Origin: Heteronotia binoei
Taxonomy: Eukaryota
Direction: 5' to 3'
DNA length: 64,000 nucleotides
Assembly: GCF_032191835.1 (NCBI RefSeq)
Contig: NC_083232.1
Coordinates: forward strand, 63,922,001 to 63,986,000
The notes under the pieces were generated by a model. The model saw nothing but the letters and a program-made list of their open reading frames with translations. It made no database searches and was not told the origin of the DNA. Each line of letters begins with the position of its first letter. Positions within the stretch are counted from its first letter, which is position 1. Positions 10,168-63,912 of this stretch are shown one piece after another. Made by a program: the position numbers and the translations under genes.

Positions 10168-10441
10168 ATTTGTAAAACCAGGGTGCAGATGATCATCCAA
10201 ATCTGTCTTGCTTTGATAAATTCTGGTTAAGATGCCTCCATAGGCATCCCTATAGTGGGGGAATGAGCAAGGGTAGAACTGGGCAACAAGGCAGGATTAA
10301 GCCAGGATATCTGAATTCATACATCATCAAAAACCTGAAGTAAAGCTTAAGTGTAGATAATAAATCAATGGCAAGCCATGGTTTAGGTTGACAGAATCTA
10401 AGTAACTACCATTAGTAGAGTGGTCCACGTTCAGTCAGATT

Positions 10442-10694
10442 TGACTCTGGAGTGACGTTGCTTTCACAACGTTTCCACGGCAGACTTTTTACGGGGTGGT
10501 TTGCCATTGCCTTCCCAGGTCATCTACCCTTTCCCCCCAGCAAGCTGGGTACTCAATTTACCAACCTCGGAAGAATGGAAGTCTGAGTCAACCTGAGCCG
10601 GCTACCTGAAACCAGCTTCCACTGGGATCAAACTCAGGTCGTGAGCAGAGAGTTCAGACTGCAGTACTGCAGCTTTACCACTCTGCGCCACAGG
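10442..10694 (-). mobile_element. Sauria SINE (Squam1), 3'-truncated
   Basis: tRNA-like head CCTGTGGCGCAGAGTGGTAAAG; GGCAATGGCAAACCACC body; 13-bp TSD GTTCAGTCAGATT at 10429-10441 and 10695-10707. Confidence 0.9.
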
Positions 10695-12091
10695 GTTCAG
10701 TCAGATTAACCATAGTTAAATTAAACCTTGGGTTCTCATTATGACTGAACAGAATCCTCCACAATATGCTGCCTAGCATGAGTCAAATTGACTCCACCTC
10801 TGAAAACCGGATAACAAACTGGGCTCTGCAGCAAAGAAACTGCCAAGGAAGAAAATACACTAATAATAATCTTAGGTTACAGATAATTAAAAATCTGACT
10901 CAACCAGAACCTTTGAGACTAATTTTAATAACAGCAGAAGCTTTCACTGGCTACAGACTGATTTGTCAGATGGCAGAAATAGTATTGCTAGCAGCAAACA
11001 ACAGGAGACAGTTCACAGAATGTTTCCGTTTGGCTGTGTGAACTGACCCTGTGCTATATGCATGTGAGGGGGAATGAATACCCTCTTTGCATGCATTACT
11101 GTGGAACCAGTTTTCAAGGCAGAGACTTGAAACTATGAAGCTAACTTGGTGTGAGATATTCTGAGAAGCAAAGCAAAAGCCTGCTTCACAATTGCTTTTT
11201 CTATTACAGTGATCAATTTCTAGCTAGAATCAGCATCCACAGTGTTTTCTGTGGTATGCATTGCTCTCTTTATCATCTTACATTCCAACATGCAAGTGTG
11301 GGCCTGCCTTCGGATATTTATATTCGTGGATTGGGTCCACATCAACAGAACAGAGATTTTTCTCCAAACTTTGGTGATTCCAACCAGGGATCAGAAAAAT
11401 CTTAAACCAGCAATAAAAGGGGGTCAAATATACCAAAAGGCTGCAGTACAGGGCAGTACAGGCCTCTAGAATTTTCCAGGGTTTTAGTAAATTTTCACTA
11501 AGTTTCAGGTTTCATAGGGGAATCTCTGTCTTTCATTGAGACACATAGAACATGAGGGGATTTCCGGTTGGAGGTGTGTGAGACCCAAATGAAAAAGACA
11601 GGCAAACAAAATGGCAAAGAAAAGGACAAAACTGAACCAAACCTGACAGAAATCTGTAAATATTTAAGTATTCTGCCTACCTCTTTCCCATCATTGGTTA
11701 CCATCTTAGACAGATGGAAAAGGGATAACATTTACTGCTTATTTGATTTTCCTTTACTCAGATGTTAGTCAGTTGTCCTTTAACTGTATGCTTTTCCCTT
11801 CTGTAACCAATGATTGTTTATACAACTAAAGATAAATTTAGTTTATACTTAATACAAGTTCCAAAGAGAACCCTTTAGCACTTGGGTGTGAATAACTCCA
11901 ACAAGCAAGGTTACCACTGTCTTTTCTACCCCCATATTGACTAGAGAGGAGACTGATTCTTAATCTGAAATGGAATCTCAAGAGACTGAAAGGCATTGAG
12001 TTAGGTGCATTTGCCTGATAATCTCAGGTAAGTAGGAGAACGGAATTAAGCTGGAGAGGCAACTTCTTGTTCGTGTATAGCAACCCAAGAC

Positions 12092-14234
12092 TAGGGATGT
12101 GCATTCGGATCGGCCGAACCGTATTTACAGCCGAATCACCACTAATTCGGCTGTATACGGAATAGGCTGCAGCCGATCCCCATAGGCGCCCATTATACGG
12201 CAGCCGAATACGGCTCGCCGTATACTTACGCATGGCTATTCGGAAGTATACGGCTTGCAATTCAAAAGGCGGGAAAGTAGCTTCTGCAGCCTCAAAGGAG
12301 CTGCTTGTCTACTTTCCCGCCTTTAGTTGCTTTTTCCCGCCTCTCCCATAGCCTCCCTGGGATCAGGGAGGAGGGGGAAGAGGAGCCCCAGCAGCCAATC
12401 CAAAGCATGCATTTGCAAAATGCATTGCAAATGCATGCTTTGAAGGGCTTTTTAAGGAGTCTTCCTTCCTGGCTGGACTCCTCCATTGCTGCTGTGTGTG
12501 AGAGATTGTGCTGCTGCTGGCTGGCCCTTGGCTTCAGCTGCTGCCTGCTGCTCTCTCACTCAGCCTTACCAGACTTCCCTGGACTAGAGAAGACAAGGTA
12601 AGACAGTCTTGGGGTTCTTGTTTTTATTTATTGTTGGTAAAAGGACTTTTTAAGACTTAGAGTCCCTTTACTTATCCAGATTTGGGTGGTGGTGGTGGTG
12701 GGGTAGCTTATTTGGGGTTAGGGGGTTAGGAGTTTCTGCTTGGGGAGGGGGCCTGGGGTGGGGGGGGTTTGCCAATTTGCCCATATCTTAATTTAGTGAG
12801 AGGACTTTTAAAAGTGCAGTGTCCTTTTACTTCTCCTGATTTGGGTGGCTTGGATTTCTTGGGGTTAGGGTGAAGGGTTTTTTTGGGGGGGAGGGGTTGG
12901 CAAAGTTCCTGTATTGTTAAAGGTTAATTTTTTTTACTGTTTTAAAAGTATTCAGTGTTTGATTTGTTGCTGCTGTGTTGTGCTGCTGCTGTTACTCTTC
13001 TCTTCGGGTTCTGGGGGGGGGGGAGGTGCTGTTTGGCCTAATTTCCATTGTTTAAAAGGCCACTTTTGTCTCCCTTTTCCTGGCTCTGGTTTTTTTTGGG
13101 GGGGGTGTTGTTGACTGATTTGGCCTGAGCTTTCTTGTTGGTGAAAAGGCCACTTTTTTAACACTTGTCCTTTTGTGATTCTGCTGGTTTTGTTTTAGTT
13201 TTTTTTAATTACCTCTGGTTGGTGTGGGGGTTGGCGAGGGTGTGTGTGGGCTGGGTCACTTTCTTGTTTTTATAGAGTAGATTGTGTGTTCTGTGGCAGG
13301 GAAGCTGGCACCTGGGTGAGAGACCCAGAACCAGCAGGCTTGTTGTGGTTGGCCAGCTCTCCCCGTGTTGTTTGGGGCAGGGCTGGAGAGCTGGCATCTG
13401 TAGATTGTGTGTTCTGTGGCAGGGAAGCTGGCACCTGGGTGAGAGACCCAGAACCAGCAGGCTTGTTGTGGTTGGCCAGCTCTCCCCGTGTTGTTTGGGG
13501 CAGGGCTGGAGAGCTGGCATCTGGGTTTGCTGCAGCCAGGTCTGCAGAGCAGACCTTGAGCAGATTGTGTTTTGTGTGGCAGTGACGTTGGCAACTGGGT
13601 TTATATTGCTTCCAGGCCTGCAGGGTTCATAGAGTAGATAGAGGGATGTAGTGCATTTGGGTCCTATAGAGATTCTCTGATGTGGTTAGGTTTGGCTTTG
13701 GGTGCCCCAGGAATTGGAACCCCTGGTCCAATTTTTTTTGGCCTTGTGGGTTTTGTGTGGGACAATGCCCTGAAGCTGCAGTTTGGGGGGCTCTCCTCAA
13801 AACCCCCTGCTCCCCAGAGCCACTTTTCCCATGACAATTACAGTGAGGAAGTGGCTAATTGGGCTTTCCCCATCATTGTTGGCAATGGGCCTTTTGGGGA
13901 GCCCGAAGACAGGGGCCCCCTGGCCCAATCTTTTTGGGACTTGGGGGGGTTGGAGGGGAGAGTCCCCTGCAGATCCCCTGCAAATTTGGGGGCTCTCCCT
14001 CAAACCCCCTCCCCTCCATGAGGCTTCAAATATACCCTATTTGCCATTGATTTCAATGGCCCATAGGGTATAATAGGGCCGTATATTCGGTAATAGCCGC
14101 GCATCTACCGTATATGCGGCTATTCCAAATGCGGTATTCAGGAGTATATGGGGATTCTGAATCCCCCCCCCCCCCCCGGTATACTTCCGAATCCGTGTAA
14201 AACCGAATTTATTTATTTTTTTTGCACATCCCTA
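12092..14234. mobile_element. hAT non-autonomous element, 2143 bp
   Basis: TIRs TAGGGATGTGCA / TGCACATCCCTA; perfect 8-bp TSD CCCAAGAC (12084-12091, 14235-14242); CpG-rich subterminal CCGAA/CCGTA repeats; no transposase. Confidence 0.92.
13278..13523. repeat. perfect 123-bp tandem duplication inside the hAT element
   Basis: 13278-13400 equals 13401-13523. Confidence 0.95.
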
Positions 14235-14395: not shown

Positions 14396-14532
14396 TAGGG
14401 GTGGCCAACGGTAGCTCTCCAGATGTTTTTTTGCCTACAACTTCCATCAGCCCCAGCCATTGGCCATGCTGGCTGGGGCTGATGGGAGTTGTAGGCAAAA
14501 AACATCTGGAGAGCTACCGTTGGCCACCTCTG
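14396..14532. mobile_element. 137-bp palindromic hAT-type MITE
   Basis: ~60-bp near-perfect arms around a 10-nt loop; TSD CTCTCGAT/CTCTGGAT (7/8). Confidence 0.9.
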
Positions 14533-14832
14533 CTCTGGATTGATCAACCAATAGACAGACAGGTCAGATTTCCAGACAGGTGCCTGATAAGCAAGGGCTC
14601 AAACTGACTCATAACTAAAATACATATTAGGAAGTTTTGTCTTCTCACAAGCACAGTTACTTCTCTGTCTCCCTCTCTCAAAAGAGGCTCATAAGCTTTG
14701 AGAAAAATATTTGCACACCTGATCCTGCTTAAAATACACACAGCTAAATTTATTGTTTATTATGTATTTGTTTATTTTTATTTTAGCTAATTTATATTCT
14801 ACCCTCCCTGTAAGTGGGCTCAGGGCAGATTA

Positions 14833-15096
14833 AAGGTAAAGGTAGTCCCCTGTGCAAGCACCAGTCGTTTTTGACTCTGGAGTGACGTTGCTTTCAGAAT
14901 GTTTTCACGGCAGACTTTTTACGGGGTGGTTTGCCATTGCCTTGCCCAGTCATCTACACTTTCCCCCCAGCAAGCAGGGTACTCATTTTACCGACCTCGG
15001 AAGGATGGAAGGCTGAGTCAACCTGGAAACGGCTATCTGAACCAGCTTCCGCTGGGATCGAACTCAGGTCGTGAGCAGAGGGCTCCGACTGCAGTA
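14833..15096 (-). mobile_element. Sauria SINE, 5'-truncated, inserted in an L2-type tail fragment
   Basis: ACCTTT-repeat tail; 14-bp TSD CTCAGGGCAGATTA at 14819-14832 and 15097-15110. Confidence 0.9.
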
Positions 15097-15963
15097 CTCA
15101 GGGCAGATTACAACATATAAAATAACACAGTTAAAATAACATTAGTTAAAACATATATATTAAAACAGTTAAAATAAGAATTAAAGAATATTATTTATGC
15201 TCCATTTGAATGCAACCATGTCCAAACTAGTGATTAATACAATGATTAAAATAACTATCTATCTATCTCTATCTGAAACACTATGTTAAACCCAATTTAA
15301 AACACCTCAAGTATAGTGCACACACACACAGAAGTCACAAGAGACTAGGCTGAGCCAAATGCTCTAAGCCAATATTTACAATGTAAAGTTTTCTTGGGGA
15401 AAGAGGCAAAATTTCCCCCCAAAGCCCCATCCTGTTCACCTTGTTTGCCCTTTCTTCATTACCAGTTTGTAGTCCTGGCAGCAAAAGTTCCTTGGAGCTG
15501 CTTGGCACCATTATTATCTCATTCAGCTGTGCCAGAATCAGGGTAGGAAGGTAGCATCACCCTTCCTTTGATCTGACTTCTTGACATCATCATGTAGCCA
15601 GACTTGACTGGCAATATGAGTCATCACGAAGCCAAAGAGACTCAGGGCAGTGCTTGCTGTTCTCACTCGGGCATCATGAAGCTGAAGCAGAAAAAGGCAC
15701 TAAGTTTTGATAAGTGAACAGCATGTTGCCATCCGTAATAGGGCAGGCTTCACCCCATTTGTAGAAACAACCCCTCAAAACTGCTAAAAAGCAGGAATCT
15801 CCTTTCAGCTACAGATAGTATAGCATAATGCAAGGCAGAACAGCTTTCTGCTCAGTCCTATGTGAGAAAGCCACAAATAATTATCTGAAAATAAAAATGA
15901 ACATAGGGCATGGTGAAACAGACAAATTTGGATGTACACCAAATGGTTCACCTATGGAAGAAC

Positions 15964-17962
15964 CCTCTCTCTCGGCTTGACTTCGCGAACGAAGATTTAA
16001 GAAAGGTGCAGTAGTACACGTCTGCTGCAGGCTCGCTGGTGGCTGACAAGACCAATGCGGGACAGGCAGATCCGGCCACAGTGGCTGCAGGGAAAAGTCT
16101 GATTTGGGGTTGGTGCTGTAGCAGTACGATTCTTCCTCAATCTCCTTTTGTCCTCAAGACCAGCTATGCGTGCGTTCTCAAAGGAAGAGACAGCCTGGTG
16201 GATGGTGTGCCTCCATGCTTTGCGATCTGAAGCTAGGTCAAACCACTGGTGATGGTTAATGCAACAGGTACCAAGAGATTTCTTCAAGGAGTCCTTGTAC
16301 CTCTTCTTTGGTGCCCCTCTATTTCGATGGCCGGTGGAAAATTCGCCATACAGGGCAATCTTGAGAAGGTGGTGGTTTTCCATCCTGGAGATATGCCCTG
16401 CCCAGCACAGCTGCGTCTTCAACAACAATGCCTCGATGCTTGTAACCTCCGCCCGCTTGAGGACTTCAGTGTTGGTCACAAAGTCACTCCAGTGGATGTT
16501 GAGGATGGTGCGAAGGCAGCGCTGATGAAAGCGCTCAAGGAGTCGCAGGCGATGACGGTATAAAACCCACGATTCGGAGCCGTAGATGAGGGTTGTCATC
16601 ACAACCGCTTTGTAAACATCGATCTTTGTGCCTTTTTTCAGATGCTTGTTGCTCCACACTCTTTTATGCAGTCGGCCAACTGCACGGTTTGCCTTTGCCA
16701 GTCTATTGTCAATCTCCTTGTCGATCTTGTCGTCTGAGGAGATGATGCACCCCAGGTAGCTGAACTGCTGGACTGTCTTCAAAACTGATTCACCCACAGT
16801 GATGCAAGGAGGGTGATAATCTTCCTGGGGTGCAGGCTGGTGGAGAACTTCTGTCTTCTTCAGACTAACTTCTAGGCCGAATAGCTTGGCAGCCTCTGCA
16901 AAGCAGGACATCATATGCTGCAGAGCTGATACCGAGTGGGAAACAAGTGCAGCATCATCAGCAAACAGTAGCTCTCGGATAAGTTTTTCCATTGTCTTGG
17001 AGTGGGCCTTTAGTCGCCTCAGGTTGAACAGGCTGCCATCGGTGCGATAGCGGATGTAGACACCATCGTCATCATCTAAATCTACTGCAGCTCTTTGAAG
17101 CATCATGCTAAAGAAGATCGTAAAGAGAGTTGGCGCGTAAAGAGAGTTGTTGCTTTATACCTGTGCCTATTGGGAAGGGCTCCGAGAGATCGTTGTAGTG
17201 TCTGACTTGGCCTCGCTGGTCTTCATGTAGCTGGATGACCATACTGAGGAACCTTGGGGGACATCCTAAACGTTCCAAGATTTGCCACAGGCCGTTCCTG
17301 CTAACAGTATCAAAAGCTTTGGTAAGGTCGACAAAAGTCACATATAGACCCACCCTTGTTCTGTTCCCTGCATTTCTCATGGAGCTGCCTGAGAACAAAT
17401 ACCATGTCGGTGGTGCTCCTGTTAGCTCTGAAGCCACACTGGCTCTCTGGGAGGAGTTCTTCTGCAATGGTGGGCACCAGTCTGTTCAGGAGTATTCTAG
17501 CAAGGATTTTGCCTGCGATGGAGAGCAGGGTTATCCCCCGGTAGTTGGAGCAGTCTGACTTTTCCCCTTTGTTCTTATGTAGAGTAATGATGATTGCATT
17601 GCGAAAGTCCTGTGGTAGTTTGCCTTGTTCCCAGCAGGTGACAAGTACTTTGTGAAGTGTACTATGCCCCCATGCTTCCAGATGTCTGGTGGGATTCCAT
17701 CAACTCCCGCTGCCTTGCCACTTTTCAGTTGCTTGATGGCTTTAACAGTCTCTTCTAGGGTGGGGATCTCATCCAACTCTGTTTTCACTGCTTGAAGTGG
17801 GGTGAGGTGGATTGCTGAATCTTGAACTACGCGATTGGCACTGAAGAGAACCTGAAAATACTCCCGGTTCAGTATGGATGCCTTGTCTGTGAGGAGCACT
17901 TGGCCGTCTGCACTACACAAGGGACTCTGAGCCTGATATGATGGACCATATACTGCCTTCAG
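15964..17962 (-). mobile_element. RTE-clade LINE (RTE1/Expander-like rather than BovB), 5'-truncated
   Basis: DLTKAFDTVSR, LLFADDAAL and FSYLG RT motifs; C-terminal CSHC...SRIGLVSH zinc finger; short GA tail. Confidence 0.92.
15997..17106 (-). pseudogene. RTE reverse transcriptase, uninterrupted C-terminal 369 codons; upstream part frameshifted
   Basis: ORF track 369 aa with RT motifs; frameshifts near 17110-17150 and further upstream. Confidence 0.9.
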
Positions 17963-18027
17963 GTGTTGATTACAACACCCAAGGTGTTGATTACAACATC
18001 CAACACTAAAAGTGTTGATTACAACAC
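17963..18027. repeat. three copies of the hairpin GTGTTG-ATTA-CAACAC at the RTE 5' junction
   Basis: Copies start at 17963, 17984 and 18012. Confidence 0.85.
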
Positions 18028-18643
18028 CCAAGGAAGCTCATATGGGAGAAACACATTTATTCAGACAAAGTGCTGGCTGCTGAAGTTAATGGGACTTGTT
18101 TCCTATAAGTATGCTTTAAGTTACATCAACAGACAGACAGGCATATTAGTATTCTGATTATCAGATATCACCTAATAAAAACCCAGCCAGTGGACCTTAC
18201 CTTGTTTTAATTATATCCAAATTATGCATTAGGTGGTAAACAACAGGGTTAAAAAAGGAAATGTGGAATTCTGCTGGCCATACAGAACAAACAAGTCAAC
18301 TTATATGCAAACAACTGGAATGGACATCTGACATTAAAAATGGGAATGTTCAGAAACCAGTCAGACCACTTTTTAATCTTCTATGACACTTGCCTGCTAG
18401 TCACCAGACTTCAATAAAAAAAACCTCAAAAGGAAGCTGAAGTCAACAACTGGTCAACCAGAGATGAATCAGCAAATATATTCAGTTTTAACTGTAGATT
18501 TTCACATAATAGGTGTATAAAAAGTACATATGAGAGTAATTACTATTGTGAATGGATCATTCTTTTGAAATCTTGTATATATAAATTTAGGTAACAAGAC
18601 CATCAGATCCCCCCTCTGTCCCATCTTCAGTTATATTATTTAT

Positions 18644-19198
18644 GAAGATGAAGAAGAAGAGTAGGTTTTTATATCCCACTTTTCTCTACCCAAAAAGCCC
18701 CATGGTGCAGAGTGTTAAAGCTGCGGTCCAAAGTTCTGCTCACAACCTGAGTTCGATCCCCAGCAGAAGTTGGGTTTTCAGGTAGCCGGCTTGAGGTTGA
18801 CTCAGCCTTCCATCCTTCCAAGGTCGGTAAAATGAGTACCCACCTTGCTGGGGGGGAAGTGTAGATGATTGGGGAAGGCAATGGCAAAACCACCCCATAA
18901 AAAGTCTGCCATGAAAACGTGAAAGCAACGTCACCCCAGAGTCAGAAACGACTGGTGCTTGGACAGGGGACCTTTCCTTTCCTTTCTCTACCCAAAGGAG
19001 TCTCAAAGCAGCTTACAATTACCTTCCCTTCTTCTTCCCATAACAGACACCCTGTGAGGTAGGTGGAGCTGGAAGAGCTCTGAGAGAACTGTGACTGACC
19101 CAAGGTCACCCAGCTGGCTTCATGAAGAGGAGAGGGGACAAAATTGGTTCTCTAGGTTAGAGTCCACCACTCTTAACCACTACACCACACTGGCTCTC
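18644..19198 (-). mobile_element. Squam3-like SINE split by a Sauria SINE
   Basis: Tail 18644-18694; body and head 18983-19198. Confidence 0.88.
18695..18982 (+). mobile_element. Sauria SINE, full length, nested in Squam3
   Basis: 14-bp TSD TTTCTCTACCCAAA at 18681-18694 and 18983-18996. Confidence 0.92.
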
Positions 19199-23335: not shown

Positions 23336-23691
23336 CCTTAGACAGTTTTCTGTTTGCATTGTGTCCTAATTTCTGTAATCCTAGTCCTTCTGCATTGTTA
23401 CAAAATGGCTTGTGCTGCCTGATTGAATAGTTCTCTATATTTTGCAACCCATCTTGAGCCTCAGTGAGAAAGATGGGCTATAAATGGGATAGATAAGTAA
23501 GTGCTATTAATTCAATCATGGTATATGTGTGTGAATCATATGTATTTGACTTGCCTGACTGCTTTTGCAATCCAGACTCATTTATTTACATATAATTTTA
23601 GTTCCTGCTTTATGTTTGCAGCACACATTTGAGTCTGGACTGCACTGGCCACACTGCTGTCTGCTGGATCACATTCCAGCCAGAGCTCCAC

Positions 23692-24533
23692 AGTAGTATT
23701 AGGGACATGGCTTTTGTCAAATCAAGATCTGATGAGGAGATAAGTCCCGCCTTCCTGGCTCCCCCTCCGGGCTCTCCCTCCCACCCACCTGGGACTGTCA
23801 GGGGTGGGAGCCATCCCACCCACCCACCCCAGGACCTAGACTTCTGGGAAGAAGGAGGAGGCAAAATAGCTACAGTGGGTTTTTTATTAGGTGAAAAATT
23901 GTTTGGTGCAAGCTTTATTTTTTGGGGGAGCTGTGCTTTTGTACAGGAGGGGTATTGAAAAGTGTGCTTTTGTATATTGTGGGAAAATGTTTGGTGTGCT
24001 TTGAAAACGAGATTCTCCAATTCCCACCTGGAGAATGTTTTGCCAGGAATTCTCTCTTCCTGCAAGCCTCAGTGGTTCCCCCACAAGGAACAGTACTCTT
24101 TTTAAACTTAAAGGCACTAGAATGGAGAGGCTGTAATACAAGCAGCTCCTCTCTTTATAAAACATAGCCATTCCCTTGAAAGAGTTATCTTTTGCAAGGA
24201 ACAGACACCATTTATTTTTTAAAGCCTGCACAAAAACTGAGAGAGAGAGAGGGTGTGTATGTGTGAGAGATACCCATTTCTCCTTCAGCCATAGAATGCT
24301 TCAGAGCCATTTTAAAATACACCATTACACACAGGTTCCTTCAGGATTTTAGCACTTCCCAGGGGAAAAAAACCTTCAGTTTCCTAAAGCAGAGAGTGAC
24401 TGCAAACACAGGCAAGCAGGTTTTGCAAAATGCAACAGTTCCCGTTTTCCCCAGACCCCAGCAAGCAGACACAGAACCCTTGTAAGGTTCACTGTCCTTT
24501 TAAGTTTGCCAACCCCCCCTTTAAGCTCAGCAG

Positions 24534-24592
<59 letters not shown>

Positions 24593-24829
24593 CAATGTGT
24601 TTTTTTATTGTTTCATTCAGAGCTTGTTTTTTGGTTTGATTCCTCAACTTGCAGCTGTTGAAATGGCCCTGGGTCAGCCGTGGTTTTCACAGAGCTTGTC
24701 CTTGAAAGGGCTGCTGCTGTAAAAGCTCTCTCACCCCCACCTGTTTCACAGAGTCTTTGTTGTGCGGGAGGAAGGTAATGGAGACTGTGAGCTGCTCTGA
24801 GACTCTGTGGTGGGCAGAATATAAATCCA

Positions 24830-24910
<81 letters not shown>

Positions 24911-26175
24911 TATAAAGTGTGTGTGTTTTTTATTTTAACAAGTCAGAGATGGCAGCAAACGAGGGGGAGGGGTTCCTCTTCAGCTTTAGAAATGCTCACT
25001 GAAGGGTGCAGCGGCCATTGGCTGAAAAGATCCATGTGATTTGCTGCCTTCTGATTAGCTAAAACCCCCATTTCAGCCAGGGTAAATTCTGTCTGGTAAG
25101 CTACCTTGATTGGAGTCCTGCTTGTCTAGTCCCACCCCTAGCAGCAGGCGCTTTTTCAACTGACTCTGCTAGTCAGTAACTCACAGCCAGTCTTCCAATA
25201 CACATCTCAAGGCGGAAAAAATGTGGCTGTGTTTTAAAATACATTTTTGGGGTTTTTTAAGCTGTGTTTGGTAAGCAATTGCATTCTGTCTCTCTCTCCT
25301 GCTGAGCTTAAAGGAAGGGTTGGCTTAGACTTAAAAGGACAGTGAACCTTACAAGGGCTCTGTGTCTGCTTGCTGGGGTCTGGGAAAAACGGGAGCTGTT
25401 GCATTTTGCAAAACCTGCTTGCCTGTGTTTGCAGTCGCTCTCTGCTTTAGGAAGCTGAAGGGTTTTTTCCTGGGAAGTGCTAAAATCCTGAAGGAACCTG
25501 TGTGTAACTGTGTATTTAAAAATGGTTCTGAAGCATTATATGGCTGAAGGGGCAACGGGTATCTCTCTCACACACACACCCTCTGTCTCTCACTCTCTCT
25601 CTCAGTTTTTGTGCAGGCTTTAAAAAATAAATGGTGTCTGTTCCTTGCAGAAGAGAACTCTCTCAAGGGAAATGGCTATGTTTTATAAAGAGAGGAGCTG
25701 CTTGTATTACAGCCTCTCACTTCTAGTGCCTTTAAGTTTAAAAAGGGTACTGTTCCTTGTAGGACTTGCACGAAGAGAGAACTCCTGGCAAAACATTCTT
25801 CGGGTGGGAACTGGAGAATCTCCAGGAATTTGTAATTTCAGTTTTTCAAATACAGTTTTCAAAGCATACCAAACATTTTCCCACAATAAACAAAAGCACA
25901 CTTTTCAATACTCCTCCTGTACAAAAGCACAGCTCCCCCCAAAAATAAAGCTTGCACCAAACAATTTTTCACCTAATAAAAAAACTACTGTAGCCATTTT
26001 GCCTCCTCCTTCTTCCCAGAAGTCCAGGCCCCCGGGGGGAGGATGGCTCCACCCACCTCTGACAGTCCCAGGTGGGTGGGAGGGGAGGAGCCAGGAGAGA
26101 GGGGAGAACCAGGAAGATGGAACTTATCTTCTCATCAAATCTTGATTCGACAAAAGCCATGTCCCTAATACTACT
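23692..26175. mobile_element. non-autonomous Polinton/Maverick-like foldback element
   Basis: Termini AGTAGTATTAGGGAC... / ...GTCCCTAATACTACT, first 27 bp perfectly inverted; arms ~23692-24595 and ~25278-26175; 6-bp TSD CTCCAC at 23686-23691 and 26176-26181; no coding core. Confidence 0.75.
24646..24912 (+). mobile_element. 5'-truncated Squam3-like SINE in the spacer of the foldback element
   Basis: Body matches other copies; long (TAT)n tail 24830-24910. Confidence 0.85.
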
Positions 26176-27059
26176 CTCCACCAACTCATGGGTAGAGAGT
26201 GTCTGTTTCAAAATATGAATTATTGGAGGCTGTACAAATTTGTTACTCAGGCCCTCCCAAGCAGGCAAGATGTCTCAGTTCCTAGTAGCCAGCCACTAGC
26301 CAAAGGTCATTAAGGAAGCCATCAAGTTATTGCTTAGTACAGCACAACGATATTTCCATAAATTTACCAAGGCAGAGATGAGATTGTGTGACACTTGGTG
26401 ACCAGCAGGGTCATTCTAATATTGTACTTCTCTCTGTAGGTTAGCTTTTCTTGCTATGGAAACAGAAACTGGAGATGGTATAGATAAATGGTTAAGAAGA
26501 GACCAGCCTATTGTGTTTGGTACTTGCACTGGTGGGGATAGGTGGGGAAAAGATACTGTTGCAGTTCAGCATAATGCAGCAACTGAGCTAGAAACAGTCT
26601 GTGAAAAGTAGAGGGCATGCACCACAACTGCTTCACGCTCTGGTTATTTTCTGTGACGTCGCTCTATGTATTATTAACTAATCTTCCTTTTACTGTAAAT
26701 CATTTCTGCTCCAAGGATATATTATTATGCTCCTAAAAATTTCTGTTTGAAGTCACAGAAAGTTTAGAGCCTTTGACGTGCAAACCAGACACAAGAGCAA
26801 AAGTTGTAGCTGTGATATTTACAACTAGATTGTTGTAAATATCACAGAAAGGCAGAAAATAAAAAGTGTTGGCCAAAATTCAAGATGGATAATTGCACTT
26901 TGCTATTCCAAAGTCTGTAAGTATACTAATGGAGGGAGTTAACGTCATTTGAGCTGCTAAAAAACCAGATTGTCAAGTATACTTAACACAAATTAAAGTT
27001 CCAAGGAAAGGAAGATAGATATTTATTAAAGCAATATAGAATAATATGTTATGCTTATT

Positions 27060-28827: not shown

Positions 28828-28851
28828 GGTTAAAATTCTAGTTCAAATACT

Positions 28852-29857
28852 AAGAACATAAGAGAAGCCATGTTGGATCAGGCCAACGGCCCATCAAGTC
28901 CAACACTCTGTGTCACACAGTGGCAAAAAATGTTATATACACACATACACTGTGGCTAATAGCCACTGGTGGACCTGTGCTCCATACACTGTGGCTAATA
29001 GCCACTGATGGACCTGTGCTCCATATTTTTATCTAAACCCCTCTTGAAGGTGGCTATACTTGTGGCCGCCACCACCTCTTGTGGCAGTGAATTCCACATG
29101 TTAATCACCCTTTGGGTGAAGAAGTACTTCCTTTTATCCGTCTTAACCTGTCTGCTCAGCAATTTCATCGAATGCCCACGAGTTCTTGTATAGTGAGAAA
29201 GGGAGAAAAGTACTTCTTTCTCTACTTTCTCCATTCCATGCATTATCTTGTAAACCTCTATCATGTCACCCCGCAGTCGACGTTTCTCCAAGCTAAAGAG
29301 TCCCAAGCGTTTCAACCTTTCTTCATAGGGAAAGTGCTCCAGCCCTTTAATCATTCTAGTTGCCCTTCTCTGCACCTTCTCTAAAGCTATAATATCCTTT
29401 TTGAGGTGCGGCGACCAGAACTGCACACAGTACTCCAAATGAGACCGCACCATCGATTTATACAGGGGCATTATGATACTGGCTGATTTGTTTTCAATTC
29501 CCTTCCTAATAATTCCCAGCATGGCATTGGCCTTTTTTATTGCAAACGCACACTGTCTTGACACTTTCAGTGAGTTATCTATCATGACCCCAAGATCTCT
29601 CTCTTGATCAGTCTCTGCCAGTTCACACCCCATCAACTTGTATTTGTAGCTGGGATTCTTAGCCCCAATGTGCATTACTTTGCACTTGGCCACATTGAAC
29701 CGCATCTGCCACGTTGACGCCCACTCACCCAGCCTCAACAGATCCCTTTGGAGTTCCTCACAATCCTCTCTGGTTCTCACCACCCTGAACAATTTAGTGT
29801 CATCCGCAAACTTGGCCACTTCACTGCTCACTCCGAACTCTAAATCATTTATGAACT
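28852..29857 (-). mobile_element. young CR1 LINE, ~1 kb, 5'-truncated
   Basis: FINDLE...FADDTKLF...YCVQFWSP...WNSLP open to the natural stop (ORF 28995-29873); TTATGTTCTT tail; 39-bp tandem duplication near 28945-29022. Confidence 0.95.
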
Positions 29858-31268: not shown

Positions 31269-31449
31269 NNNNNNNNNNNNNNNNNNNNNNNNNNNNNNNN
31301 NNNNNNNNNNNNNNNNNNNNNNNNNNNNNNNNNNNNNNNNNNNNNNNNNNNNNNNNNNNNNNNNNNNNNNNNNNNNNNNNNNNNNNNNNNNNNNNNNNNN
31401 NNNNNNNNNNNNNNNNNNNNNNNNNNNNNNNNNNNNNNNNNNNNNNNNN
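31269..31449. other. assembly gap (181 N)
   Basis: N run; sits at the expected position of the simple-repeat tail of the adjacent L2. Confidence 0.99.
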
Positions 31450-36319: not shown

Positions 36320-37116
36320 CAGGGCCAGCATGTGAGAGTAGGAGAGGTAGGCGGCTGCCTAGGTGCCCCCTCACCGCAGAGGCGGGGGCGGCACCCCCTC
36401 CGCATCCTCGTTCGCACTATTCCTGATCCTCCACATCATTCTTTCTTGGCTCTGAGCAATTGGAGCTGAGAAAGAGCAACATACCCCATTCCCACCCAGT
36501 CCTCTCCGGGTTCAGAGGGAGCTGGGTGGGGTGGGTGCCAAGCATTCTTTCTTGGCTCCGATCACTCAGAGCTGAGAAAGAATGACACACCCTCTGCCCA
36601 GCTCTCTCCAAACCCGGAAAAGGCTTGGTGAGGGGCATGCCGAGCATTTTTTCTTGCTCTGAGTGTTTGGAGCTGAGAAAGAGCAATGTGCCCCCTGCCC
36701 AGCTCCCTCCAAACCTGGAGAAGGTGGGGCAGGGGGCATGCCGAGCATTCTTTCTTGGCTCTGAGCGATCGGGGCCAAGAAAGAACACCATGCTCCCCAC
36801 CCAGTCCTCTCTGGGTTTGGAGGGAGCTGGGCAGGGGATGCATTGAGCATTCTTTCATGGCTCTGATTGCTCAGAGCTGAGAAAGAATGAAGCGCCCCCT
36901 GTCCACTGCCCTCCAAACCCAGAGAGAGCTGGGCGGGGGGATGCACCAAGCATTCTTTCTTGGCTCTGAGTGATCAGAACTGAGAAAGAACATTTAAGAA
37001 CAGTGCACCGGCGTGATAATGTTACTTCAGGGTGACGTCATCATGCCGTGCACAATTGGAGCCCACGGGGGGGGGGGGTTCTGCCTGGGGTGGCAGAACC
37101 CCTAGCGCCAGGGCTG
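36320..37116. mobile_element. hAT-type MITE carrying a ~103-bp hairpin minisatellite
   Basis: CAGGGCCAGC ... CCTAGCGCCAGGGCTG; TSD ATTGGGTT/ATTAGGTT (7/8); six units beginning CATTCTTTCTTGGCTC between ~36437 and 36992. Confidence 0.75.
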
Positions 37117-41280: not shown

Positions 41281-41810
41281 GGGGGGGGGGGTATGTGACA
41301 GGTGTTTTGACCACATGGTAACTTGCCTGCCTGGTGTGAAGGTTTCAGACATCATATGGTGTCTAGATAGGTTGATAGAAAGCACTGGGGAGGAGTCAGC
41401 AGTCATGGGGCACACTGGTACCAATGACATTGGGAAATGTAGTTGTGTTGTCCTGGAGAAAAAATGTAGGTTACTAGGCAGAAAGTTAAAGGTCAAAACC
41501 TCAAAGGTAGCATTCTCAGAAGTGCTGCCGGTTCCAGAAAGATTGGCACATATCATGGGTCTCAGTGCATGGATGAGAAAGTGGTGCTGGGAAAAAGAGT
41601 TTAGATTTCTTAGATACTGGGAACTTTCTTGGACAAGCAAAACTTGTACAAAAGAGATGAGGTTCACTTGAACCAAAAGGTAGCCAGGCTGCTGGCAACT
41701 AATATAAAAAAGGTGTCAAAGCAGTTTTTAAATTAATCTCGGGGTGGGGAAAATGACAGGACTTGGGGAGTCTCCAGTTTGAGACAAGGTAGTCCAAAGG
41801 TAGTCCAAAG

Positions 41811-42034
41811 AGCCCTGTGGCGCAGAGTGGTAAAACTACAGTACTGCAGTCCAAACTCTCTGCTCATAACTTGAGTTCAATCCCAGTGGAAGCTGGGTTC
41901 AGGTAGGCAGTTCAAGGTTGACTTAGCCTTCCATCCTTCCGAGGTTGGTAAAATGAGTACCCAGCTTGCAACGTCACCCCAGAGTCGGAAACAACTATGC
42001 TTGCACAGGGGACCACCTTTACCTTTTTTTTTTT
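41811..42034 (+). mobile_element. Sauria SINE with internal deletion, nested in CR1
   Basis: 10-bp TSD TAGTCCAAAG (41801-41810, 42035-42044); central GGCAATGGCAAACCACC segment missing. Confidence 0.88.
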
Positions 42035-42970
42035 TAGTCCAAAGGGATGATTTTGTAAACAGGATAATACTGATAGGAGTGTAATAGAATACCTGGGAGT
42101 GAGGGCACAGTGATGGCTGAGGGCCATGTGTGGTGACTAAGGGACAGAGGAGGCAAGAGTTACTGAAGAAGGAAACACATTATAGGTGTCTATATGCCAG
42201 TTCTAGAAGTCTCCAAGTCAAGATGGGGGAACTGGAGTGCTCAATGTTCAATAACAATTTAGATATAGTAGGTATCTCAAAAACATGGTGGAATAGGGAA
42301 AATCTATGGAATACAGTCATTCCTGTGTATAAGCTCTATAGGCAAGACAGGGAGAGATGGGTTGTTGTTGCTGTTGCATTGTACATCAAAAAGGGCATCA
42401 AATCAAATAAATTATAAAACATCAGAGGAATTAACTCCCCAACAGAAACAATATGAGTGGAAATACTGGGCCCTAAAGGTTACTTAAAAGTGGGGGTGTA
42501 CTATTGCCCACTTAATCAAACCCTCAAGACTGATCTTGAGATGCAGAAGGAAATGAGAGAGATTTAAGAAGCTCAATTACTTTTGAGAGAAATAAGAAGC
42601 TCAATTACTTTTTTGCTCCTGTGTTCACTGTGGAAAGTGTGGCACACATACCCATGCCACAGCCCCTATTTTCAGGAAGGGAATCTGAAGAACTGAGTCA
42701 AATTGAGGTGACCAAAGATGAAATTCTAGACCTACTGGGGAAATTAAAAACTAATAAGTGTTCAGGTCCTGATGGCACATACCCAAGAGTTTTCAAGGAA
42801 TTCAAATGTGAGATTGTTGATCTACTAGCCCATAGATTTAACCTATCACTAAATTCAGCTTCTGTACCAAAAGACTGGAAAGTAGCAAATGTGACGTCAG
42901 TTTTTTAGAAATGGATCCAGAGGAGAACCAGGAAATTACAGGCCAGTCAGCCTAACGCATATCCCAAGTA

Positions 42971-43950
42971 AAGTTGGGAGTGAGCAGTGAAGTGGCCAAG
43001 TTTGCAGATAACACTAAATTGTTCAGGGTGGTGAGAACCAGAGAGGATTGTGAGGCACTCCAAAGGGATCTGTTGAGGCTGGGTGAGTGGGTGTCAACAT
43101 GCAGATGAGGTTCAATGTGGCCAAGTACAAAGTAATGCACATTGGGCCAAGAATCCCAGTTACAAATACAAGTTGATGGGGTGTGAACTGGCAGAGACTG
43201 ACCAAGAGAGAGATCTTGGGGTCATGGTAGATAACTCACTGAAAATGTCAAGACAGTGTGCAATTGCAATAAAAAAGGCCAACGCCATGCTGGGAATTAT
43301 TAGGAAGGGAATTGAAAACAAATCAGCCAGTATCATAATGCCCCTGTATAAATCGATGGTGCGGTCTCATTTGGAATACTGTGTGCAATTCTGGTCACCG
43401 CACCTCAAAAAGGATATTATAGCATTGGAAAAAGTCCAGGAAAGGGCAACTAGAATGATTAAAGGGTTGGAACACTTTCCCTATGAAGAAAGGTTAAAAC
43501 ACTTGGGGCTCTTTAGCTTGGAGAAATGTCGACTGCGGGGTGACATGATAGAGGTTTACAAGATAATGCACGGGATGGAGAAAGTAAAGAAAGAAGTACT
43601 TTTCTCCCTTTCTCACAATACAAGAACTCGTGGGCTTTCGATGAAATTGCTGAGCAGTCAGGTTAAAACGGATAAAAGGAAGTACTTCTTCACCCAAAGG
43701 GTGATTAACATGTGGAATTCACTGCCACAGGAGGTGGTGGCGGCTACAAGCATAGACAGCTTCAAAAGGAGGTTAGATAAAAATATGGAGCAGAGGTCCA
43801 TCAGTGGCTATTAGCCGCAGTGTGTATATGTGTGTGTGTGTGTGCATATATATATATATAAAAAAAAATTGGCCACTGTGTGACACAGAATGTTGGACTG
43901 GATGGGCCACTGGCCTGATCCAACATGGCTTCTCTTATGTTCTTATGTTC
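42971..43950 (+). mobile_element. young CR1, ~1 kb, nested in the older CR1 ORF2
   Basis: Nearly identical to 28852-29857; 1-bp frameshift near 43140; ORF 43083-43814; TTATGTTCTT tail. Confidence 0.93.
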
Positions 43951-45205: not shown

Positions 45206-45950
45206 GAAAGGGGAAGAGGAGAAAAATGCAGTAGCAAATACATACTGCAACTGCATTTATCTTCCAGCTTACTGATCAGCAAGCCTTTATGGAAATACGG
45301 GGGGGAACCTGCTATTCTACAGAGAAAATGCAATTGTGTGGTGGTTTCTCCTACTGTATCATCTGCATTATGGTTTTTTCTTACAAGTACACAAATCCAG
45401 AATGTCAAACTGCATTATTAACAGCTTTAGCAAGGCATGCCTAATGATCATATTTGAGCCACAAGTACATGAAAGGTTCATGTGATCTTGTATTTCAGCT
45501 AGGAATGTGAAAATAATAAGTTGATCCTCTAAAAGCATAAATGAAATCCAGGAAGCTTCTGGGATGAAATGCTATGCTTCTGCCAGTGCAGACTAATGGG
45601 GGCCCAAGCACATGTTCAGAAATGTGGCAAGGAAGGCCAAACACATAGAGGACGAGGCTCTAACCCCTCAAGTGCAACAAGTGCAGAAGTGTTTTAGAAA
45701 GTCAAATAAAAGCTGTAGTTGTACTAGTGAACTTCTGGCTTCCCCGCATCACATGTATCAAAAACTCTGCAATCCATCTCTGCTTACTTAGGGGGGACAT
45801 GGAAGTTTATCTTGATAAGTATATGGCTGCAAACCTGTTTTTGCCAAGACAGTAAAAATACAAGCCCGGGCACTTACAAGGGAAAACTATTGGGTAAGAG
45901 GGGTGCTTAGGCCCTCCTGCTTTTGTGAAACTTCCTCTGCAGAATTTCCT

Positions 45951-47111
45951 GGCTTTTGATAAGGTTCCACATACTATCCTTGTTGACAAGTTGGTAAAAT
46001 GTGATTTGGATCCTGTTACCGTTAGGTGGATCTGTAACTGGTTGACAGATCGCACCCAAAGAGTGCTTCAGAATGGTTCCTCATCCTCTTGGAGAGGAGT
46101 GACAAGTGGAGTGCCTCAAGGTTCTGTCCTGGGATCTGTTTTGTTCAACATCTTTATCAATGATTTGGATGAAGGAATAGAGGGAATGCTTATTAAATTT
46201 ACCAATGATACTAAATTGGGAGGGGTTACAAACACAAAAGAAGACAGAAACAGGATACAAGATGACCTTGACAGGCTGGAAATCAATAAAATGAATTTTA
46301 ACAGGGATAAATGTTAAGTTCAGCATTTAGGTAAGAAAAATCCAATGCATGGTTACAGGATGGGGGAGACTTGTGTTAGTAGTAGTATGTGCGAAAAGGA
46401 TCTAGGGGTCTTAGTGGAGCATATGCTGAACATGAGTCAACAATGTGATGTGATGGATTAAAAGGCAAATGCCATTTTGGGCTGTATCAACAGAAGTATA
46501 GTGTCCAGATACGTAATGTGATGGTGTCGCTTTCACATTACGATGGTGTCATAATGTGATGGTGTCGCTCTGGTAAGACCTCACCTGGAGTATTGTGTTC
46601 AGTTTTGGGCACCACATTTTAAGAAGGATATAGACAAGCTGGAACAGATCCAGAGGAGGGCAACAAAGATGGTGAGGGGTCTGGAGACCAAGTCCTATGA
46701 GGAAAGGTTGAAGAAGCTGGGGATGTTTAGCCTGGAGACGCGGTGGCTGAGAGGTGATATGATCACCATCTTCAAGTACTTGAAGGGCTGTCATATAGAG
46801 GATGGTGTGGAATTGTTTTCTGTGGCCCCAGAAGGTAAGACCAGAACCAATGGGTTGAAATTAAATCAAAAGAGTTTCCGGCTCAACATTAGGAAGAACT
46901 TCCTGACGGTTAGAGCGATTCCTCAGTGGAACAGGCTTCCTCGGGAAGTGGTGGGCTCTCCTTCCTTGGAGGTTTTTAAACAAAGGCTAGATGGCCATCT
47001 GATAGCAATTAAGATCCTGTGAATTTAGGGGAAGGTGTTTGTGAGTTTCCTGCATTGTGCAGGGGTTGGACTAGATGACCCTAGAGGTTCCTTCCAACTC
47101 TATGATTCTAT
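45951..47111 (+). mobile_element. CR1 of a second subfamily, 5'-truncated and decayed
   Basis: AFDKVPH...[10 protein letters not shown]...FINDLD...WNRLPREVV; tail CCAACTCTATGATTCTAT. Confidence 0.92.
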
Positions 47112-60246: not shown

Positions 60247-60686
60247 TGTCAAGTCGACGGATTCAAGAATGAGTCAAAGTTGATACTAAGACTACATTTA
60301 TTGATAACCGGTACTCTGGCGCAAGCCTCTAGCTTGCTAAGAATGAAACCAATACATTGATACATGGGTTTTAAGATACACTTCAAAAACATTCCTTGGG
60401 GGAGTGGGGTTCAGGAGGAAACATTCACACATAACTACCAGATACTTTCTCAGGCGATAGCTGGCCTCCTGTCCTTGTATTATCATGCAAGGATTCCTCC
60501 CACCTCAGGCCCTGAGAAGGCGCTGACTATTTCTTTCACACAATTGCAAATCAAAATAAGAAAAGGGGGGAAGGGAAGTAACTAAGAGTAGAACATTAGC
60601 AGCAGTGGATCCATTATGATTTTAACCAGGCCTGATACTTAGGCCAAGATCCCCCAGTCTTTAGTCATAATCAGTCGATCTTGACA
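60247..60686 (-). repeat. 3' LTR, 440 bp
   Basis: 7-bp inverted termini; AATAAA on the minus strand at 60297-60302; first 231 bp match 63682-63912 with 6 differences. Confidence 0.95.
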
Positions 60687-60700
60687 TACTGCCCCCGTTA
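60687..60700 (-). promoter_or_regulatory. polypurine tract
   Basis: Minus strand TAACGGGGGCAGTA directly precedes the 3' LTR. Confidence 0.7.
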
Positions 60701-60714
60701 AGCTGACCTTCTCG

Positions 60715-62060
60715 GTCTCTGAGGGTGCTTAGTTAGAAACTTCTTAATCAGATCAGGGGCTGACATCTTTTTCTGCTACCCACTCATTTTCCCTAGGAGG
60801 GAAATGCTTCCATTTAATTAGATAGTACAGCTTTCCATGTTTAATCTTTGAGTCCAGGATTTCCTGGATCTCATGGTGACTTTGATTCCCCATCTGGATA
60901 GGTTGAGGTGCTTCCGGCCGAGGATGCCAAGGGGAACACCCAGGGTCCTTCTGAAGAAGACTGCAATGAAAGACAGGGTGTACTTTACTAAACATTTTTG
61001 CTAACTCCAGCTCTACTGTAACTTTATTTATCACCCTTTTGATCTTAAATAGACCCAGGTACTTATATGCCAATTTTTTGGACGGTTGGTTAAGTGGAAG
61101 GTTTTTTGTGGACACAAATACCGAGTCCCCTACTTTGAAATCCCAAGCGGGGACATGGCTTTTGTCATATTGTTTTTTGTAAGCCTCCTTGGCTGCTTCC
61201 AGGTTCTCCTGTATTTCCTTCCAACTTTTAGTCAGGGTGCCCCACCACTGATTGAACGGGCTTGGTTCCTTCTTTGTGCCTCCTCCTGGGAGCAAAGGGA
61301 GGGGTTTTCCCACATATCCACTCACCTTTTGAAATGGTGAGGCTTTAGTGGAGCTGTGAACGCTATTATTATAGCAGTATTCAGCGAAAGGGAGGAGATC
61401 CACCCAATTGGATTGTTGATGGTTGATGTAACACCTTAAATACTGCTCTAATAACCCGTTCATGCGTTCCGTCTGTCCGTCCATCTGCAGGTGGTAGGCG
61501 GAATTCAACCCCTGCTCCATGCCCATTAGTTTGCAAAACTCCCGCCAGAAATTGGCAACGAATTGTGGGCCACGGTCGCTAATCACCTTGTCTGGAATTG
61601 AGTGTAGTTTGGCTACATGGTTGAAGAACAAGTAAGCCAGTTTCTTGGCGGTGGGGAGTTGGGCGCAGGGAATGAAGTGGGCTTGTTTGGAAAAAGTGTC
61701 CACTACCACCAATATTACTGTTTTGCCATGAGAGAGCAGTAGCTCCACAATGAAGTCCATGGAGACTATTGACCAGGCTCTAGAGGCGGTCTCCAGCAGT
61801 TTGAGCAATCTGGGGGGTTTCCCCCCCTTCTTTTGGCCATTATGCAAATGGGACAAGTGGTCACAAACTCGGATATATCCTTTTTCATGCAGGGCCACCA
61901 AAATTGTCTGTTAACCAAGTGCAGGGTCTTAACATACCCAAAGTGCCCAGCCAGTTTGTTGGAATGGCAGAACTGTAGCACTTCTGATCTCATGGTCTTG
62001 GGAACGTATAGCTTTTCTCCCTTGTACCATAGCCCATCCTCCTGTTTCTGAATTTCCCCT
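60715..62060 (-). pseudogene. pol: integrase with HHCC finger, DDE core, GPF-like motif and C-terminal chromodomain; frameshifted
   Basis: H...GHFG...CPIC; SMDFI, ISDRGPQF, GQTERMN; YLGLFKI; HEIQEILDSKIKHGKLYYLIKWKHF..ENEW; frameshifts near 61830 and 60760. Confidence 0.92.
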
Positions 62061-62209
62061 GGCCGTTCCTCCCCCTCCTTCTCGATTTCTGTTGCCATTC
62101 TTTCTGTCCCCCACCCCTGTAGTTGGCGTTTCTTTTGTGACCAGGTGGTTACAACCGCGGCCACCCAGGTGGGCGGAATCAAGGAGTCCACTACCTCTTC
62201 TCTCTGACT

Positions 62210-62620
62210 ATTGTGCTGCGGCAGGTGGGACAGCGCATCAGCTAGAAAGTTTTTTGTGCCTGGGATGTGCTTGAGCACAAAATCGAATTTAGAAAAGAAC
62301 CCTGCCAACCTGATCTGTTTTTCACTCAGTTTCCTCTTCCCTGTGAGGGCTTCGAGGTTTTTGTGGTCGGTCCATATTTCAAACTTTCGCCCCCTCTAAC
62401 CAAGACCGCCACGTTTTCAGTGCAAACATTACTGCAAACGCCTCTTTGTCCCACACCGACCAGTTCCTTTGCTCCACTGTGAATTTTTTCGAAATATAGG
62501 TGCAGGGCCTCAGTTTCCCTTCCTCATCTTTCTGCATGAGAATGGCTCCAACGGCTACATCGGAGGTGTCGCATTGCACCACAAAGGGCTTAAGCTCGTT
62601 GGGGTGTCTCAGGACCGGCT
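62210..62620 (-). pseudogene. pol: RNase H domain of pol
   Basis: PFVVQCDTSDVAVGAIL, RNWSVWDKEAFAV, TDHKNL, NFLADALS; one frameshift near 62380. Confidence 0.9.
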
Positions 62621-63629
62621 CACTCCATCCTCGAAACTTGGCTGCATTGGCCCGGAGGTCTGCAGCATATTCCTGGATTGACTTCTGCCCCTGCTGCATG
62701 TCGTGGAGGGCTGCCAGGGCCCGGGTCTCCTGGAGGGGGTCTTCGTACTGGGCCAACAGAGCCTGAAGGAACGTTGCTACATAGTCCAGTTCCGGGCTCA
62801 TGGCTTCGTACAGGCTCACGTACCACCTTTTAGCCGCCCCCTTCAGCTTCGACCCCAGGTAGTCCACTCGACTAAACTCATCAGGGAACGTATTCCGCCA
62901 ATAATGCATGTAGCTGTTTGCCTGGATCGTAAAGTACTCTACTTCATCCAGATCCCCGTCGAAGGTGGCATCGAGCTCCCTTTCTCTCCCTCCATCTCAA
63001 GGGGCAGGAGGGGGTGCCGCCGGCCGGAGCACTGCGGGCGGGGCCGAGGCCACTGCCGGTGCAACTGGAGCTGGTGCCGGTTGCTGCTGGATCGGTGGAG
63101 GTTGGGGAACCCTTCTGGGTCCGGGCAGCCCTAGAGAGCGAGAGATTTCTCGGGTAATTTCTCCCGCCATGTGGTTGGTCATGGTCTGCATCTCTGCCTT
63201 CAGGCCCCTGACCACACTCCCCACTTCCTTGCAGACCATCGCTCGAAATTCCCGGGCCATCTCGTCCTCCTCGTCTTTTGGAGCCGCCGCCCCCAGCTCT
63301 CCCTCGTCTGGCTCTGGGCACTCCTCATGCACCGGGACGACCACGATAGTGTCAATCTCCTCCGGCTCCATAGGCCCTGGATTGGGCCCCTCCGCGTTCA
63401 CCATCCACATCCTTCGCATATGCCTGGTCAGGATGGCTTCCCTCCTAGCCAGGGCCTCATCCATTGTGCTGGTGGAGGTCCGGGGCTGCCACTGCCTCGG
63501 GGTAATGAGGAGCTGCTGGATCTGCAGAGGCGAGGCCGCTGCTCTCCAGGCATCCAAGACGTGCCACGGAATAGACAGCCCTTTTTCAGTGTCAGGAAGC
63601 TCACCGCCTTCTGGTATCTTTTCAGCCAT
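62621..63629 (-). pseudogene. gag: gag (sushi/PEG10/RTL1-like capsid), one premature TGA, C-terminus deleted
   Basis: ORFs 62997-63629 and 62379-62909 share a frame (offset 720) across a single TGA; FDGD..V.YF..Q..SYM and QGQKSIQEYAADLR capsid motifs. Confidence 0.88.
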
Positions 63630-63668
63630 TTGGCTACAAAGTGGCCGGGGTGGTTAAGCTTCAAACGG

Positions 63669-63679
63669 ATTCTTAGGAA
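63669..63679 (-). promoter_or_regulatory. putative self-priming primer-binding site
   Basis: Minus strand TTCCTAAGAAT, 2 nt after the 5' LTR; 10/11 complementary to LTR motif ATTCTTAGCAA (63769-63779); does not start with TGG. Confidence 0.65.
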
Positions 63680-63681
63680 AA

Positions 63682-63912
63682 TGTCAAGTTGACAGATTCA
63701 AGAATGAGTCAAAGTTGATACTAAGATTACATTTATTGATAACCGGTACTCTGGCGCAAGCCTCTAGCTTGCTAAGAATGAAACCAATACATTGATACAT
63801 GGGTTTTAAGATACACTTCAAAAACATTCCTTGGGGGAGTGGGGTTCAGGAGGAAACAGTCATACATAACTACCAGATACTTTCTCAGGTGATAGCTGGC
63901 CTCCTGTCCTTG
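63682..63912 (-). repeat. 5' LTR remnant (U5, R and part of U3)
   Basis: Matches 60247-60477. Confidence 0.95.

Follow-up and report, generated by a model that had tools for sequence, protein, structure and literature searches.

The analyzed window is a 64,000-nucleotide stretch of the genome of the gecko Heteronotia binoei. Positions 23692 to 26175 of the window hold a gene-less element of 2,484 bp (23686 to 26181 with its flanking duplications), which reads, in order, CTCCAC, AGTAGTATTAGGGAC..., about 2.5 kb, ...GTCCCTAATACTACT, CTCCAC. By self-comparison and alignment, the element was divided into a left arm of 905 bp on the forward strand (23692 to 24596), a spacer of 681 bp with no strand (24597 to 25277), and a right arm of 898 bp on the reverse strand (25278 to 26175). 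The left arm opens with the (AGT)2 end motif (AGTAGT at the 5' tip, 23692 to 23697, forward strand) and the right arm closes with ACTACT. The two arms form terminal inverted repeats (TIRs) that account for 73% of the element length. They are flanked by exact copies of the target site duplication (TSD) CTCCAC, both read on the forward strand (23686 to 23691 and 26176 to 26181). The element is real, and it is an insertion. The original prediction had placed inverted copies at 23692 to 24595 and 25278 to 26175, with AGTAGT ends and a CTCCAC direct repeat. This description was borne out, the inner end of the left arm lying one base further on, at 24596, and the exact 6-bp repeat falling precisely at the arm tips.

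Self-comparison of the window (blastn) gave one long inverted match at the element (911 columns, 85.6% including gaps, E 0.0). A global alignment of the two arms had 783 matches and 57 mismatches (93.2%; 38 transitions and 19 transversions), and a MAFFT alignment had 75/846 mismatches; the two alignments correspond to a drift of ~3.4 to 4.4% per arm. Besides this ~7% divergence, the arms differ by 9 to 11 indels, and the left arm has an expanded (GA)n tract at ~24536 to 24589. The first 27 bp of the arms are identical, and the first 67 bp contain six mismatches (positions 28, 38, 46, 55, 58, and 59), all of them transitions, as had been predicted. Mismatches were evenly distributed along the arms (permutation p 0.71), and five differences of the CpG decay type were found among eight CpG sites. 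The arms are therefore likely of one age, having decayed in a methylated host. A perfect 10-bp stem with an 11-nt loop lies at 26049 to 26079, ~95 to 125 nt from the right tip, and is imperfect in the left arm; the terminal 150 nt folded no better than shuffled sequences (z -0.93 to 0.51).

The flanks were compared in 17 end registers at repeat lengths of 2 to 12 bp. CTCCAC at the true arm tips was the sole exact flanking repeat of at least 5 bp. Two random 6-mers of the window match by chance with a p of 3.5e-4, and AGTAGT occurs in the window at a frequency of 1.9e-4 per position. A 6-bp flanking repeat was present at 1 of the 81 AGTAGT..ACTACT pairs in the window, namely, the present element. 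A generic scan of the window for a TIR plus a TSD produced 15 rows: the present element, a hAT-like element at 12092 to 14234, and 13 in which a palindrome inside an inverted repeat had been taken as the "TSD." Within the 64-kb window, we found neither a further copy of the arms nor a second terminus, and no empty site was seen, as the joined flanks of the element matched no other window repeat.

The element showed no recognizable coding content. All 65 of its stop-free stretches (at least 28 amino acids) were searched against Pfam, with 0/65 above the cutoff, and both this search and one with four long frames produced only subthreshold, low-complexity matches. Rfam gave a single subthreshold match on the element. 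In the spacer, where no coding remnant was detected, the longest Met-started frame has 45 codons, in agreement with the earlier claim that the ~680-bp spacer has no informative open reading frame (ORF) and the element no genes. The spacer part at 24911 to 25277 (no strand) is noncoding and single copy within the window; it contains three CCAAT/ATTGG words against 0.8 expected, which by itself is not significant. The right arm contains a stop-free frame of 173 codons on the forward strand, directed toward the tip (25624 to 26145), whose left-arm counterpart is partly open. This frame exceeds every frame in 132 non-TE tiles (Markov p 0.003 to 0.074). A word-based search limited to near lengths returned 0/61 candidates, and the best score in the ESM Atlas was 0.79, a low recognition. 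A full phmmer search returned one match, to an 867-amino-acid protein, at 36% identity over 13 short stretches, which we took as a repeat artifact. No family and no credible homologue thus emerged from the word-based, phmmer, ESM Atlas, and Pfam searches. Comparison of the arms over the frame gave a synonymous/nonsynonymous ratio of 11/16, which is uninformative; the frame is possibly a relic ORF or a product of chance. Elsewhere in the window, a Pfam search covering 116 stop-free stretches of at least 88 amino acids (out of 124, the other 8 lying in or across the element) detected LINE reverse transcriptase (RT) and Gypsy domains but no PolB, ATPase, or capsid.

The remainder of the spacer is largely occupied by a 5'-truncated, tRNA-derived SINE on the forward strand (24633 to 24910), with an (ATT)27 tail at 24830 to 24910. 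It starts at the B box, 36 bp from the inner end of the left arm, and belongs to a family of ~270 bp in the window. Copies of this family resemble, by eye, the published Squam3GjB3 in head, length, and tail (PMC7983390), which supports a gecko origin of the window. Squam3B3, the major variant in Gekkonidae, has a tRNA head, a length of ~270 nt with the B3 insertion, and a (CTT)n-type tail, and its copies average only 74 to 81% similarity (PMC7983390). A T-rich repeat of 10 to 14 bp at 24596 and 24922 was at chance level as a candidate SINE TSD (E 0.76); Squam3 rarely generates TSDs (PMC7983390).

The original prediction correctly recognized this SINE but took it for a later insertion, and the latter is contradicted at face value by its divergence. 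Private changes were found at 29/192 sites of the spacer SINE against 10 and 5 in its closest window relatives (at 6142 and 37812), a count that rests on these two comparison copies and that an unsampled older sub-subfamily would inflate; 8 of the 29 are shared with two or more other window copies or with the copy at 7711. Set against the per-arm rate of 3.4 to 4.4%, the divergence of the SINE is about fourfold higher (binomial p 2e-11 to 9e-9), and it is greater even than the whole distance separating the two arms (Fisher p 0.0004 to 0.016). Had the SINE come after the element, its divergence would be expected not to surpass that of a single arm; it appears to predate the arm pair. On these divergences, the SINE more likely inserted into a previous copy and arrived with it as a passenger, although the low average similarity among Squam3B3 copies tempers this reading. 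It could equally have ridden as cargo in a full-length element.

The ends, the TSD, and the arm length together point to Maverick/Polinton ancestry, which we regard as very probable. In vertebrate Mavericks ("Alphaproteovirus"; Barreat and Katzourakis 2021, PMC8097293), the end motif is defined as 5'-(AGT)2//(ACT)2-3' or (AG)3//(CT)3, the former being the commonest and accompanied by perfect 6-bp TSDs. Their TIRs measure 46 to 1,447 bp (mean, 402 bp), and intact copies are 12.7 to 24.6 kb long with eight core genes (PMC8097293). The present element agrees with them in its AGTAGT//ACTACT ends, 6-bp TSD, long TIRs (905/898 bp, 93% identical), and gecko host. It differs from an autonomous Maverick in its length (2,484 bp versus 13 to 25 kb) and in that PolB, integrase, ATPase, protease, and capsid were not detected. 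The arms also compare with a TIR of 584 bp in the Anolis Maverick (PMC3014272). We counted end motifs in 26 TIR-bearing squamate rows, an earlier part of the supplementary table of PMC8097293. Exactly AGTAGT//ACTACT was present in 10/26 (Anolis, 2; Ophiophagus, 2; Paroedura, 1; Pogona, 1; Python, 4), the viper form AGTAGA//TCTACT in another 10/26, and other, mostly one- or two-base, variants in 6/26. The listed loci include Anolis carolinensis, Pogona, and two geckos: Gekko japonicus has two Maverick fossils without TIRs, and of three loci in Paroedura picta, one combines AGTAGT//ACTACT ends with a perfect TSD (PMC8097293). Among the gene-bearing gecko Mavericks is P. picta BDOT01001307.1:5505-31253. 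A Maverick lineage in geckos is therefore already published, and geckos are known hosts rather than new ones. Because a Maverick gene remnant was not found, the assignment is built on the ends, the TSD, and the arm length and not on gene or TIR homology. The Maverick/Polinton ancestry proposed in the original prediction is nevertheless supported, as the element fits the published end motif, TSD length, and TIR range, and rival classes fail on the termini.

An N in Repbase-style names marks nonautonomous families, and Kapitonov and Jurka are said to have described nonautonomous Polintons in 2006. Like the present element, Polinton-1N1_DR and Polinton-N1A_NV are reportedly Polinton derived and lack the coding core partly or entirely. 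The former name is in use for zebrafish (PMC9341505) and the latter for Nematostella, where Polinton-N1A_NV, unlike the gene-less gecko element, still encodes a capsid protein (PMC11296320). No Polinton rows were found in two supplementary files of PMC9341505. Butterfly polintons lost polB, carry LINE or LTR cargo, and stayed mobile (bioRxiv 10.1101/2025.02.07.637071). They resemble our element in being defective and in having a retroelement between long TIRs (theirs with genes inside), but they are many kilobases long and have kept most genes, whereas the gecko element has none. The survey of vertebrate Mavericks began from INT and pPOLB hits 4 to 40 kb apart (PMC8097293), which by design puts gene-less copies outside its reach. 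Passages of four other papers (PMC10748475, PMC8504770, PMC5499653, and PMC9004415) contained nothing further about Maverick forms that lack genes. Nonautonomous Polintons have precedent in fish, and in the open literature we came across no gene-less mini-Maverick described from squamates, geckos included, a scope that leaves aside Repbase, Dfam, subscription papers, and the repeat libraries of genome papers.

As to how the element got here, we see about an even chance that it is a nonautonomous lizard Maverick/Polinton derivative that was already short on arrival, having been copied and integrated in trans by helper enzymes. An older resident Maverick copy would have acquired the SINE and been stripped of its genes, and the protein-primed polymerase of a helper Maverick would then have copied this defective element from its ends, resetting both arms to near identity. 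The helper integrase would have inserted the short copy here, generating the 6-bp TSD, after which the arms would have decayed neutrally by ~3.4 to 4.4% each. With ~3.6% per arm and a rate of 1 to 3e-9 per site per year, the age is roughly 10 to 40 million years. The repeated AGT terminus is the start site for jumping-back protein-primed DNA synthesis, as in adenoviruses (PMC8097293), and the retroviral-like Maverick integrase leaves a 6-bp duplication (PMC6431247). Arrival in short form is favored by the old SINE between younger-looking arms and by the lack of a Pfam family in all 65 stretches. Against it count the single copy seen, although 64 kb gives no information on copy number, and the seeming lack of nonautonomous Maverick copies reported for Anolis (PMC3014272).

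Possible too, at somewhat less than an even chance, is that a full-length Maverick (about 13 to 25 kb) inserted with its own enzymes and afterward lost nearly its whole interior to deletion in place. What remains would be the two TIRs with about 0.7 kb of noncoding sequence between them, and the short form would never have moved. The evidence from the ends and the TSD would be identical. In vertebrates, 96% of Maverick loci are decayed fossils, most copies being partly deleted as well, and squamate fossils that retain TIRs but are shortened internally are listed with lengths of 6,250, 8,062, and 10,926 bp (PMC8097293), which makes shrinkage in place a normal fate. Mavericks are also low copy and have been argued to spread mainly as size-constrained virions (PMC8097293), and the 5' truncation of the SINE so close to the inner end of the left arm could be a deletion junction. 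Under deletion in place, the SINE would have been cargo of the full-length element or else a later arrival, in the latter case with gene conversion homogenizing the closely spaced arms. Three observations weigh modestly against this history. The old SINE demands prior cargo or conversion of whole arms, yet the even spread of arm mismatches gives no sign of patchy gene conversion; an intact TSD is ~4 to 5 times likelier at 3.4 to 4.4% decay than at 15%; and Pfam detected no coding trace on either side of the putative junction. With a single copy, arrival in short form and collapse in place cannot be separated, and collapse fits almost as well; the integration in trans put forward in the original prediction is therefore less secure than it was presented there. 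On either history, the element is now an inert fossil.

If the element did arrive short, it may belong to a family of mini-Mavericks in geckos, each ~2 to 2.5 kb long, devoid of genes, and spread by a helper polymerase and integrase, a suggestion that we make tentatively. Such a family would be comparable, by analogy, to defective-interfering virus genomes. It is doubtful that the unusually long arms arose by copy-back of one end, in which case each would comprise the parent TIR and adjoining unique DNA, possibly with the relic ORF. A multicopy, gene-less family of 2.5 kb, if true, would be direct evidence of mobilization in trans and would show which ends suffice as the cis-acting minimum. 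Vertebrate Mavericks, for which spread as virions has been argued (PMC8097293), would then either be able to increase in number within cells too or package genomes of one-seventh the normal size, which bears on whether they are size-constrained virions only or also transposons copying within the genome. A class of lizard Maverick fossils would then have escaped gene-first surveys. Taken as a single locus, the element merely extends the list of Maverick fossils from established hosts. A scan for end motif plus TSD detects Maverick relics that are out of reach for protein-first surveys.

We consider it improbable that the element is a nonautonomous, long-armed DNA transposon of another class (foldback/Mutator-like, IS3EU/GingerRoot, Ginger, or hAT) with Maverick-like ends by chance. 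Large arms around a short loop, as in our element, typify foldback derivatives of several classes, and a gene tying the element to Mavericks was not found. TSDs are 8 bp in hAT and about 9 bp in Mutator elements, and a repeat of 7 to 12 bp was absent in all 17 registers. The hAT-like element at 12092 to 14234, serving as a positive control, did show an 8-bp TSD; for this element, the earlier statement that hAT elements in the window have 8-bp TSDs and short TIRs was right. IS3EU/GingerRoot and Ginger have integrase-like transposases, and IS3EU likewise generates 6-bp TSDs, but its termini are TA..TA (or TG..CA) (PMC10045372); Ginger1 and Ginger2 have TGTNR termini and TSDs of 4 to 5 bp (PMC2836005). 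At our element, registers with TA ends (trim 2 or 5) gave no TSD, and we found neither TG..CA or TGTNR ends nor a register with a 4- to 5-bp TSD. The exact AGTAGT motif, with a p of about 2e-4 per position, also argues against another class. The least credible reading, and a very improbable one, is that host DNA was duplicated locally in inverted orientation (by replication template switch) or that the structure is an assembly artifact, with motif and flanking repeat coincidental. In its favor, nothing else in the window matches the arms, and the joined flanks match no window repeat. Against it, a 6-bp repeat located at the tips (3.5e-4) together with the motif known from the literature (~2e-4, rising a fewfold when other known Maverick motifs are allowed) has a joint chance of ~1e-7 to 1e-6, and the 7% arm divergence and 9 to 11 indels rule out an assembly duplicate.

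Several other repeats lie in the window. An inverted pair at 28851 to 29842 and 42969 to 43945, spanning 15 kb, was considered as the TIRs of a full-length Maverick and rejected, as both are CR1-type LINE 3' ends, oppositely oriented, that have RT-like frames and lack AGT ends; they are 91 to 94% identical (62 mismatches in 965 sites). The hAT-like element at 12092 to 14234 is 2,143 bp long, with ends TAGGGATGTGCA and the 8-bp TSD CCCAAGAC. It has an exact tandem duplication of 124 bp at 13277 to 13523, and no transposase domain was found in it. At 14397 to 14531 lies a near-perfect short palindromic element that is MITE-like (about 135 bp, 91%), and at 36436 to 36990 lies an array of ~103-bp units, about 70% alike and self-matching also in inverted orientation, which is possibly part of another DNA transposon. 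A second SINE-like family, distinct from the Squam3-like one, has four copies (10432 to 10698, 14832 to 15098, 18690 to 18985, and 41805 to 41969) and is presumably Sauria SINE. A gap in the assembly (181 N, 31269 to 31449) lies 5 kb off the Maverick-like element, which is unaffected. A Gypsy-type LTR retrotransposon with a chromodomain integrase occupies 60247 to 63912; its LTRs differ at 6/231 sites, and gag-pol is broken into several frames. Positions 61150 to 61170 of its integrase coding region match the subterminal TIR at 23702 to 23722 in 20/21 bases (E 2e-4 with a 60-nt query), probably by chance. A broken RTE-type LINE with an RT domain lies on the reverse strand at 15997 to 18037, and more LINE RT fragments are found at 45898 to 47022.
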